A stretch of DNA of 5,959 nt, taken from IMG/VR virus record IMGVR_UViG_2713896782_000022; one strand, given 5' to 3'. Below, one piece after another: positions 1,281 through 3,429 of this stretch. The notes under the pieces were generated by a model. It ran no database searches. It was given only the letters and a program-made list of their open reading frames with translations, and was not told where the DNA came from. The number at the start of each line of letters is the position of its first letter. Within the stretch, counting starts at the first letter, position 1. The translations under genes and the position numbers were made by a program. The stretch is from a virus (lineage: Duplodnaviria > Heunggongvirae > Uroviricota > Caudoviricetes).

Positions 1281-1447
1281 TCGCCATGCTCCGCATCACG
1301 TTTCTTTTTCTGACCTGCCGGACGTCGCACCGTGATGTACTCCGCCTTTCCCAGGCGAACCAGCACCTCCGCACACGGCTGTGCCACATCACGGATATCC
1401 CCGGCCCGGGCATCATGCGTGCCCTGCAGATATCGGATCTTTGCCAT
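1226..1447 (-). CDS. Hypothetical small protein (73 aa), possible head-completion or adaptor-type gene; function unknown
   Basis: ORF MAKIRYLQGTHDARAGDIRDV... fills the 211-bp space between the capsid-gene stop (1492) and the portal start (1280). ATG at 1447-1445. A strong AAGGAGG (reverse complement of 1478-1484) lies 30 nt upstream, separated from the ATG by a 20-nt GC palindrome. The 3' end overlaps the portal start by about 55 nt out of frame, which lowers confidence. I recognise no family. Confidence 0.35.
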   Translation of the reverse strand: MAKIRYLQGTHDARAGDIRDVAQPCAEVLVRLGKAEYITVRRPAGQKKKRDAEHGECGTFYGEPEKTRNQDVT

Positions 1448-1456
1448 AACCTGTTA

Positions 1457-1476
1457 CGGGAGGCGCACGCCTCCCG
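1457..1476 (-). promoter_or_regulatory. GC-rich palindrome / RNA stem-loop between capsid-gene stop and the next start codon
   Basis: CGGGAGGCG-CA-CGCCTCCCG: perfect 9-bp inverted arms around a 2-nt centre. It is not followed by a U-run on either strand, so it is not a classic intrinsic terminator. It sits between the SD AAGGAGG and the ATG of the 73-aa ORF. Confidence 0.45.
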
Positions 1477-1491
1477 TCCTCCTTATCAGAC

Positions 1492-3429
1492 TCAGCCGCC
1501 GGACGCACTGCCGTAGTTCACTCCGGTGATCACCGCCACCGCCGCAGTACGGCGACGACGCCAGTTGATCCAGCGCTCCGCACGGATGGCCACGCTGCCT
1601 GTCTGGAACATGGAAACCAGCTCCACCGGGGACGGCGTGGTACTGTCGCCGCCCGGCTCAGACTGCATTTCCAGTGATGCCTCGCGGGACATATCCACTG
1701 CCACGCCGCCGTCATCCGCCAGATAAATATCCGGGGCATTCACCAGCACCAGCTGGTCACCCACGTACTGGGAGACAATCACCGGCAGCCCCTGGAAGGA
1801 GCCACCCAGCAGGGTCATGTCCGGGTATTCCTTCTGACCCAGCGCATTTTTACGCATGGACAGTGCCAGGGCATTGGTGCTGGACATCAGCCAGACCGCA
1901 CCGGTGGGCTGCAGGTTTGCTGCCACAAACTGTCCAAACGCAGCCTCGGCATCCGCATCCGGGTTACCGGTTGATGCCGTGCCCTTCACATCATGGGTGA
2001 TGGACGCCGGGGAGACATCTGCCACTGCGGCTTTTTTCGGGTCCACAAAGTCTGTATCCAGACGCGCCACCACCGCTTCCGCCAGCGCATTACGGACCAG
2101 TGCATCAGCAGCCGGACTGGAAAAACGGATCAATTCTTCCGTCAGTACCGCAATGGCCGACACCTTCGCATGACTGAAGGTGATGGATTCAAAATCAAAC
2201 TTCGTCAGGGGTTTTGCCTTACCCTCACCCACCCAGCCGGCAGCACCGCCGGACACCTGGGCGTGCACACGGATATTGAATGGCACCTGACGAAGTGCAG
2301 GGATCCCGCCCTGACCAAATCGCCCGATAATGGTCTGCGGACGCAGGTAATCAATAAAGTCCTGTGCGTATTCCTGATATTCAGACAGGCTGCCTGCCCA
2401 CTGCGGATCCGTGGTGGTCCCCGCGCCCACTGCCGATTTCAGGACATGATGCAGACGACTGTCATCCGGATACTGACGACGGGCCACTTCCAGGGCTTCA
2501 GATCGGACGCCTTTAGCCGCAGCCAGCGATTTGGCAAAGCGGGCGAAGCCAATCCCCTTATCCAGTTTCTGCTCCACACGGATCACCGGCGCAGAAGCCA
2601 CCGCGGCCACATTCCCGTTACCGGCCTGTTTCACCGGCTGCGCCGTGGCGGCCTTACCGGCTTCCAGTTCACGCAGGCGCTTCAGGTGCGCATCCACCTG
2701 ACGGATTTCCGCTGCGGTGTTGTCGTAATGCTCTTCCTCCTCCACATCCAGCGTGCGCCCTTCCTCTGCGGCTTTGGTCATGACCTCCTCAAGGGAGGCT
2801 GCCAGCGCTGCACGCTTGTTTTCAAAACTTTTAATCTGTTCGCCAATATTCATTATGGTCTTTTCCTTATGAAAAACGGTTGTTGACTGTGCCGCAGCGC
2901 CGGCAGAAGATGCGATTTTCACCACCGGTTTCCGGTTGCCGGACGCGGCAGAAAACGGGCGGTCGTAAGATTTAATGGTCCGGATGGTGCATTCCGCATT
3001 CGCGGGCACGGTGACGGCAGACACCTCCATCAGTTCCCAGCGCAGAAAATGCAGTCCGCCTCCGTCCAGAAAGGTGTATTCATGGGGACGGAAGCCCACG
3101 GACAGCCCCCTGACCAGCCCGGTCTTAATGGCCGCCCAGACCTCATCCAGCCGGGCAGCCAGTTGCGACGGCATATCCGGTACGGGCTTCACCAGTGTTG
3201 CCGTGATTTCCAGCCCTTCGCTGACCCGGCGCACCGTACACTGCCCCACCGGGCGGGAATGGTCATGCTGCCAGAGAAACGGGATCGCACTGCCAAACTC
3301 CGCGCCCTCCGGCTCCAGGATGTCACCATCCCGATCCGGAGAAGGCGTTGACGCAATCCCGGTGATCACCCGTTCATCCTCACTGAAGGATTTCACCGTC
3401 AGCAGGGAACAGGCCCGTTTAAGAGTCAC
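1492..3429 (-). CDS. Prohead protease - scaffold (delta-like) - major capsid protein fusion, HK97 family (645 aa)
   Basis: One uninterrupted minus-strand ORF. GTG start at 3429-3427, preceded by AGGAGG (reverse complement of 3435-3440) with a 5-nt spacer. N-terminal ~160 aa resemble the HK97 prohead protease family (FLWQHDHSRPVG with candidate His; RGLSVGF with candidate Ser). Residues ~193-280 are a charged, coiled-coil-like segment (MNIGEQIKSFENKRAALAASLEEVMTKAAEEG...LKRLRELEAGKA) typical of a capsid delta/scaffold domain. The C-terminal ~360 aa resemble the HK97-fold capsid body (LRPQTIIGRFGQGGIPALRQVPF...; ...YLADDGGVAVDMSREASLEMQ...SVAIRAERWINW...). Stop TGA at 1494-1492, with TGATAA following shortly after. 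Confidence 0.9.
   Translation of the reverse strand: MTLKRACSLLTVKSFSEDERVITGIASTPSPDRDGDILEPEGAEFGSAIPFLWQHDHSRPVGQCTVRRVSEGLEITATLVKPVPDMPSQLAARLDEVWAAIKTGLVRGLSVGFRPHEYTFLDGGGLHFLRWELMEVSAVTVPANAECTIRTIKSYDRPFSAASGNRKPVVKIASSAGAAAQSTTVFHKEKTIMNIGEQIKSFENKRAALAASLEEVMTKAAEEGRTLDVEEEEHYDNTAAEIRQVDAHLKRLRELEAGKAATAQPVKQAGNGNVAAVASAPVIRVEQKLDKGIGFARFAKSLAAAKGVRSEALEVARRQYPDDSRLHHVLKSAVGAGTTTDPQWAGSLSEYQEYAQDFIDYLRPQTIIGRFGQGGIPALRQVPFNIRVHAQVSGGAAGWVGEGKAKPLTKFDFESITFSHAKVSAIAVLTEELIRFSSPAADALVRNALAEAVVARLDTDFVDPKKAAVADVSPASITHDVKGTASTGNPDADAEAAFGQFVAANLQPTGAVWLMSSTNALALSMRKNALGQKEYPDMTLLGGSFQGLPVIVSQYVGDQLVLVNAPDIYLADDGGVAVDMSREASLEMQSEPGGDSTTPSPVELVSMFQTGSVAIRAERWINWRRRRTAAVAVITGVNYGSASGG
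2851..2868 (-). promoter_or_regulatory. Internal in-frame ribosome-binding site plus ATG (Met193) inside the protease-capsid ORF
   Basis: On the minus strand ATAAGGAAAAGACCATA precedes ATG (2853-2851). AAGGA is the reverse complement of 2864-2868, about 10 nt upstream of the ATG. The downstream peptide MNIGEQIKSFENKRAALAA... resembles typical N-termini of HK97-family capsid proteins, which begin with the delta domain. Confidence 0.45.

Follow-up and report, generated by a model that had tools for sequence, protein, structure and literature searches.

The DNA studied here is a 5,959-nt stretch (hereafter, the window) of a virus of the Caudoviricetes (Duplodnaviria; Heunggongvirae; Uroviricota; IMG/VR record IMGVR_UViG_2713896782_000022), and it is the head module of Shiga toxin (Stx)-converting lambdoid phages (BP-4795, YYZ-2008, 2851). 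Every gene in its list of open reading frames (ORFs) is encoded on the minus strand, with two terminase genes followed by the gene of a prohead protease/major capsid fusion protein (hereafter, the capsid gene), a 73-aa ORF (hereafter, the small ORF), and a portal gene (Table 1). At the junction between the capsid gene and the small ORF, a GC-rich RNA hairpin stands between a Shine-Dalgarno (SD) sequence and the AUG of the small ORF. Comparison of over 80 related prophage sequences suggests that this hairpin folds and brings the SD and the AUG together. We consider it probable that the junction is a split ribosome-binding site (RBS), in which the folded hairpin puts the SD approximately 8 nt from the AUG, superimposed on a 3′ hairpin of the capsid gene. 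This interpretation is supported by comparative and thermodynamic evidence.

Table 1 Features of the window at and around the capsid-to-small-ORF junction, with positions counted from the first nucleotide of the window.
Feature	Position	Strand	Basis or description
Small terminase gene	5714–5151	minus	Pfam and PHROG
Large terminase gene (terL)	5154–3493	minus	Pfam and PHROG
Second GC hairpin with U-run (GAACCGCUGCGGCGGUUU+UUUUAUUUUC)	3441–3468 (stem: 3468–3451)	minus	Terminator-like call
Prohead protease/major capsid fusion gene, 645 aa	1492–3429	minus	Pfam Peptidase_S78 and Phage_capsid; phrog_617 (major head protein)
SD sequence AAGGAGG	1478–1484	minus	Adjoins the 5′ base of the hairpin; 7 nt past the capsid stop
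RNA hairpin	1456–1477	minus	5′ arm ACGGGAGGC (1477–1469), loop GUGC (1468–1465), 3′ arm GCCUCCCGU (1464–1456)
8-nt spacer AACAGGUU, hairpin to AUG	1448–1455	minus	Single-stranded; equals the effective SD-AUG spacing
73-aa small ORF	1226–1447 (AUG: 1447–1445)	minus	ORF57 of BP-4795; phrog_829 ("unknown function")
Portal gene, cut off by the window end, N-run at 262–311	249–1280	minus	Pfam Phage_portal

Read along the coding strand, the junction is UGA-GUCUGAU-AAGGAGG-(ACGGGAGGC-GUGC-GCCUCCCGU)-AACAGGUU-AUG, with the hairpin in brackets and 44 nt of intergenic sequence separating the capsid stop from the small-ORF AUG. A repeat finder reported two inverted repeat arms of 10 nt each (1456–1465 and 1468–1477, 100% complementary) with 2 nt between them; because a 2-nt RNA loop is impossible, the hairpin consists of 9 bp (A1477-U1456 to C1469-G1464) and a GUGC loop. 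Its energy is −17.8 kcal/mol, and the coding strand of the window contains no simple hairpin of greater stability. An initial annotation of this DNA had placed the AAGGAGG, the palindrome, and the start codon at these positions around the capsid stop, with the SD 30 nt from the start codon, and had proposed that the stem, if formed, leaves an effective spacing of about 10 nt. Rechecking the coordinates in the sequence confirmed the positions and the raw distance of 30 nt. Bringing the SD near the AUG by the stem also holds, and the estimate of the resulting spacing changes slightly: it is 8 nt with the stem folded, and 10 nt only if the closing A-U pair is left out. The folding of the junction in silico that had been suggested there yields the 9-bp stem, with a mean pair probability of 0.87–0.99 in partition-function folds (contexts: 100–310 nt), and in the same folds the SD is unpaired with a probability of 0.65–0.86. 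Pairing of the SD with CCUCC of the 3′ arm (5 bp, 14-nt loop) was considered and found by inspection to be non-competitive with the 9-bp stem.

Duplex energies with the 3′ end of 16S rRNA make AAGGAGG the strongest of three SD sequences compared in the module (AAGGAGG: −12.2 kcal/mol; capsid SD: −10.3 kcal/mol; portal SD: −5.8 kcal/mol). The sole SD-like element between the hairpin and the AUG is an AGGU located 2 nt from the AUG (−3.2 kcal/mol), and no upstream start is possible for the small ORF because an in-frame UAA (1456–1454) overlaps the last stem base. The sequence features that define a split RBS are found together at this junction: an SD that is distant from the start codon (more than about 15 nt), a hairpin in the gap, a functional effective spacing, the absence of an alternative SD at canonical spacing (AGGU being the sole candidate), and conservation with differing stem sequences (81/86 junctions, 17 stems; see below). 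When 9.6 kb of the BP-4795 head-tail module was searched for the order SD-hairpin-start, a single such arrangement was recovered, at this junction. Covariance models of Rfam gave no match at 1440–1500 (E ≤ 1), and the only Rfam match in the window was a chance snoRNA match at 4175–4218.

Related junctions were collected by searching with the capsid protein and with three divergent homologues, which yielded about 260 viral contigs and, among species-representative genomes, 29 loci; the 281 usable loci comprised 86 distinct sequences from the capsid stop to the AUG. All 86 contain a GC-rich hairpin (stem: 6–13 bp, with 6–8 bp in 70/86; tetraloops: 72/86; GNRA or UNCG loops: 57/86). The initial annotation had named loss of the palindrome in homologous modules as a possible refutation, and the result is the opposite, with a GC hairpin at the same place in each distinct junction. 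In 81/86 junctions, a 4–7-nt match to UAAGGAGG ends −2 to +3 nt from the stem base (at least 5 nt in 74 of the 81). The raw SD-AUG distance in these junctions is 23–38 nt, and when the hairpin is excised it falls to 5–8 nt in 64/81. Anchored information content shows that G-G-A-G is conserved at positions −4 to −1 before the stem, with near-random sequence at positions −12 to −6, in the loop, and in the post-hairpin spacer. The length of this spacer is 6–8 nt in 68/86 junctions, although its sequence varies. One relative (L233) carries 14 extra nt inside the loop (GATCCCTCAGGGGGGAAA; junction at about 3451–3503 of that locus), which raises the raw spacing to 38 nt and leaves the SD abutment and a 7-nt spacer unchanged. 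L233 is a natural insertion mutant that tests the loop-out geometry.

An upstream SD is absent from Rouxiella/Serratia (L011, L020, L249) and from distant Marinobacter, Chelativorans, Caulobacteraceae, and other loci (L028, L021, L029, L019, L023). In junctions of this kind, at least 20 nt lie between the hairpin and the AUG. Four of them (L019, L021, L028, L029) have a recognisable SD after the hairpin at normal spacing, and the others (L011, L020, L249, L023) have only a weak purine-rich match there. The upstream and downstream SDs are distributed in a complementary manner. Two further distant groups have no intergenic hairpin: in Snodgrassella (L025/L026) the small ORF begins before the capsid stop, and in Hydrocarboniphaga (L017/L018) it begins 3 nt past the capsid stop, with an 11-bp stem located within the small ORF.

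Per-sequence stem detection identified 17 different stem sequences among the 86 junctions. Two E. coli alleles differ by an A-U to G-C double change at the stem base, and the Pantoea variants L204 and L208 show a C-G to U-A double change. One E. coli allele contains G·U pairs, which are A·C mismatches on the opposite strand and therefore fit the coding-strand RNA only. Searched against both strands of 515 kb, a covariance model of the junction gave exactly one match in each locus, in every case at this junction. In the covariance-model alignment, 88% of the cells are paired and double changes occur in 3/7 pairs; 0/500 shuffles reached the observed covariation score or paired fraction, and every slid register gave fewer paired cells (53–63%) and a lower covariation score. 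Alignment quality was limited, with the Pantoea stems out of register in a MAFFT alignment (A1) and 18–31 unpaired cells remaining in three columns of the covariance-model alignment (A2). Given the weakness of the covariation statistics, we relied on per-sequence stem detection instead. A conserved outer helix between the post-stop region and the AUG region, suggested by minimum free energy and extended folds, was rejected by flank controls: with the hairpin constrained, flank pairing averaged −4.18 kcal/mol in native sequences, −4.87 kcal/mol with swapped flanks, and −5.64 kcal/mol with shuffled spacers, and 300/300 permutations in each control were more stable than native. Because native flanks pair less than the controls, the SD and spacer appear to be kept unpaired, as expected of a ribosome landing site.

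A hairpin within an initiation region could also be an operator, in which an RNA-binding protein (for example, the small basic protein or a capsid protein) represses or tunes translation of the small ORF and bridging is secondary, as is known for the operators of the MS2 coat protein and of thrS. In favour of this, the tail of the small protein is basic, and the split RBS of thrS holds such an operator. We regard this explanation as quite improbable: the 17 stems, mostly with generic GNRA/UNCG loops, vary freely between lineages and the 14-nt loop insertion is tolerated in one relative, which argues against a sequence-specific protein site, and domain and profile searches detected no RNA-binding domain.

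The small ORF itself is a genuine gene. All related loci examined, including the distant alpha- and gammaproteobacterial ones, have a homologue of it located between capsid and portal genes. Compared with other genera, the ratio of nonsynonymous to synonymous substitution rates (dN/dS) is 0.11–0.29 over the first 37 codons, where synonymous sites are saturated or nearly so, indicating purifying selection with a dN/dS of about 0.2. The phrog_829 profile aligns with the small protein from residue 1, and its N-terminus MAKIRYL is conserved starting at the AUG. Proteins of other genera have 51–56 aa, and a length of 73 aa occurs only in the E. coli alleles, in which a C-terminal extension overlaps the first 55 nt of the portal gene (1226–1280) in another frame. 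Pfam assigned no domain to the 73-aa protein of the window, and three distant family members matched Pfam DUF7210; a PDB profile search with the small protein returned no credible match and no solved relative.

The hairpin is at the same time consistent with a 3′ element of the capsid message, which was the second proposal of the initial annotation. GC hairpins of unrelated sequence follow the capsid stop in distant alpha- and gammaproteobacterial relatives, even where the SD comes after the hairpin, and a U-run of at least 4 follows the stem in 27/86 junctions. A scan for terminators called the Pantoea/Erwinia and Rouxiella hairpins intrinsic terminators (L196: GCGGGGAGAAATCCCCGC+TTTTTTT; L011). 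In the window allele, the stem is followed by UAACAGGUU, which provides the GC stem-loop of an intrinsic terminator without its U-run; for this reason the hairpin is not an intrinsic terminator in this allele, in agreement with the initial annotation, and the scan was silent at it. A bidirectional or opposite-strand terminator was also considered and is unlikely, as no U-run is present on the plus-strand side. The second hairpin of the module lies between the terL stop (3493–3495) and the capsid GUG (3427–3429), followed by AGGAGG, 5 nt, and the GUG. Relatives conserve ACCCGC-NNNN-GCGGGU and a run of 5–6 U ahead of the capsid SD, and the SD stands after this hairpin, in the normal order. With conserved hairpins on both sides, the capsid cistron is bracketed. 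The capsid message would be needed in large excess over the portal-side products, and the hairpin may primarily be a transcript-end or stability element of this message. In lambdoid phages, terminators are read through by Q-modified RNA polymerase, so that an RNA-level 3′-exonuclease barrier would be the most plausible role in Stx phages. Highly expressed cistrons can be followed by intrinsic terminators or by intercistronic stem-loops that stabilise the transcript, such as the repetitive extragenic palindromic (REP) elements in malE-malF and the hairpins of the puf operon. Like these, the junction has a GC-rich tetraloop hairpin directly 3′ of the most abundantly required cistron, with a U-run in relatives. 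Unlike these, the window allele lacks a U-run, and its hairpin lies inside the initiation region of the next gene and not upstream of a complete RBS. A literature search on capsid-gene stem-loops found nothing specific.

These observations raise the explanation that the hairpin serves the capsid message alone, being a 3′ element (leaky terminator, attenuator, or 3′-exonuclease barrier) that sets the capsid-to-downstream stoichiometry, with the adjacent GGAGG not used in initiation and the small ORF translated weakly without an SD, or by re-initiation. Distant relatives keep a hairpin after the capsid gene wherever the SD lies, the Pantoea, Erwinia, and Rouxiella hairpins are canonical terminators, a matching hairpin stands ahead of the capsid gene, and the capsid stop is just 44 nt from the AUG, all of which fit a capsid 3′ element. 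However, a 3′ element alone leaves unexplained why a near-invariant GGAGG always abuts the stem beside randomised bases, why the post-hairpin spacer is held at 6–8 nt, and why most relatives without an upstream SD have a recognisable downstream one; of the three SDs compared, moreover, this one forms the strongest duplex. We therefore consider it unlikely that the hairpin serves the capsid message only, and favour the split RBS superimposed on the capsid 3′ hairpin.

Bacteriophage T4 provides the closest precedents for a split RBS. Intervening structure shortens the distance between SD and AUG in both gene 38 (22 to 5 nt) and gene 25 (27 to 11 nt), destabilising mutations lower initiation, and the arrangement is confined to close T-even phages (PMC3014915). 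Such sites have been termed non-contiguous or split, and thrS has been added as a case (PMC7297116). As summarised in PMC3014915 and PMC7297116, the T4 sites go back to Gold 1988, Nivinskas et al. 1999, and Malys & Nivinskas 2009. The likeness to T4 gene 38 drawn by the initial annotation is apt, with a reduction from 30 to 8 nt at our junction: in both systems the SD is too distant (T4: 22 and 27 nt; here: 30 nt) and the intervening sequence forms a stable hairpin, which leaves a functional effective spacing (T4: 5 and 11 nt; here: 8 nt). In both, too, the site lies at an intercistronic junction of late structural genes, and conservation is at the level of a clade, with more distant relatives using a contiguous RBS. 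The two differ in that the genes and phage lineages are unrelated (here, temperate lambdoid siphovirus prophages of Enterobacterales) and that the bridging hairpin here is a conserved capsid-gene 3′ hairpin, which in some relatives is a canonical intrinsic terminator. Moreover, the enhancing role was proven in T4 by mutagenesis, reporter fusions, and dimethyl sulfate (DMS) probing (PMC3014915, PMC7297116), whereas here we infer it.

In E. coli thrS, as summarised in PMC7297116 (Sacerdot et al. 1998), the ribosome-binding region is likewise broken up by a hairpin, and the single-stranded RNA on either side of it is contacted by the ribosome. According to the same summary, however, the thrS SD is at normal spacing, and the thrS hairpin parts this SD from an upstream enhancer and is a protein operator (PMC7297116); at our junction, it is the SD and the AUG that the hairpin separates, with no sign of a specific protein site. 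Our literature searches did not turn up a description of this junction and yielded few further split RBSs; the hairpin-bridged RBSs reported in the literature searched are very few, namely those of T4 genes 38 and 25, besides the related case of thrS. In its sequence features, the junction agrees in every respect with a split RBS of the T4 38/25 type, and it appears to be a new and unusually well-conserved case.

Based on these comparisons, we propose that the 9-bp GC hairpin, which folds in silico and is conserved, would form in the late transcript and set AAGGAGG at a distance of about 8 nt from the start codon of the small DUF7210-like gene. Pairing with the SD would then bring the AUG into the P site of a 30S subunit, or of a ribosome fresh from termination at the capsid stop, with the hairpin looped out, a step modelled by analogy on T4 genes 38 and 25. 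The hairpin is probably older than this arrangement and may have begun as a terminator, attenuator, or 3′-exonuclease barrier after the capsid message, and in Enterobacteriaceae the SD of the next gene would have come to lie across it. As the U-run is gone in this E. coli allele, the hairpin is most likely an RNA-level barrier or spacer here and not a terminator. We put forward only tentatively the stronger version, which seems doubtful at present, that one stem-loop does two jobs, ending or stabilising the capsid message and serving as the obligatory bridge in the RBS of the next gene.

Several points weigh against a split RBS. The role of the SD in initiation is one that we infer from sequence, and coupling of its translation to that of the capsid gene could play a part in expressing the small ORF or even be enough by itself. 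Re-initiation by ribosomes ending at the capsid stop does not conflict with a split RBS and may make use of it; the stem begins 15 nt downstream of the stop, a distance that a terminating ribosome, by footprint estimate, probably does not span. Effective spacings in the Pantoea/Erwinia group (9–14 nt) are longer than optimal. The counts overstate the number of independent events because the sequences are phylogenetically related, the stem GGCGGGG/CCCCGCC is common to 44/86 junctions, and kinship also inflates the covariation counts. Formal covariation is modest, owing to the G/C-homopolymeric stems and the partial misalignment of the Pantoea group. Finally, 37/200 mononucleotide shuffles of the whole window hold an equally or more stable hairpin, and the z-score of the 81-nt local fold is only −0.96. 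Stability alone is therefore not significant, and the case rests on the position of the hairpin in the 44-nt gap and on its conservation across relatives. The same values, together with the ease with which GC-rich DNA folds, would fit a chance palindrome, or a palindrome bound by protein at the DNA level, without RNA function. This explanation is very improbable, far more so than a capsid 3′ element alone, in view of a hairpin in 86/86 junctions despite saturated divergence, the G·U pairs of the E. coli alleles, the predominance of stable tetraloops, and a covariance model that matches once per locus and solely here.

The segment 1200–1800 shows 100% identity with the Stx-converting lambdoid phages YYZ-2008, 2851, and vB_EcoS_phi330, and 99% with BP-4795, and it is present at ≥90% identity in 1244/5426 complete E. 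coli genomes. In the BP-4795 record, the counterpart of the capsid fusion is annotated as major head protein/prohead protease, ORF57 is entered as hypothetical, and the junction between them carries no annotated regulatory feature. The capsid ORF ends with three in-frame stops in 12 nt on the minus strand (UGA GUC UGA UAA; 1494–1483), the capsid stop UGA (1494–1492) being followed by UGA (1488–1486) and UAA (1485–1483). In one viral contig (L050), the first capsid TGA is changed to CGA, and the ORF would terminate at the next stop. The portal gene has its own SD (GGAG) 8 nt ahead of its AUG. Its run of 50 Ns is flanked on either side by an identical 9-mer (CGTCTGCAG) and looks like a masked stretch or an assembly gap, not biology. 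Upstream of the small terminase gene are inverted repeats bearing GTTAAC (5785–5838 and 5895–5912), including a repeat perfect over 12 nt (GCAAATGTTAAC / GTTAACATTTGC) with a third copy (GTTAACATTT), and a palindrome (CAGTTAACA/TGTTAACTG) among them. These GTTAAC repeats may be a putative regulator site or terminase recognition site.

The head module is present in about a quarter of complete E. coli genomes and in many Stx1, Stx2, and Stx2c phages, and its natural variation is rich, with >80 distinct sequences from over a dozen genera, two E. coli hairpin alleles, one loop insertion, and sister lineages whose SD follows the hairpin. It is a ready system for studying how the 30S subunit accommodates a helix between the SD and the P site. 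For gene callers and RBS predictors, it is a caution that distant SDs should not be dismissed, and it suggests how phages overlay transcript-end and translation-start signals within a 44-nt gap. If the tentative reading of one stem-loop with two jobs were true, the small gene would be translated only from read-through transcripts with a folded hairpin, and the portal gene would perhaps be affected too, through the overlap. The junction would then be a device that fixes the ratio of capsid to portal-side expression, having arisen from an SD that moved across a pre-existing terminator, and split RBSs would be recurrent in temperate phages and not a T4 curiosity.

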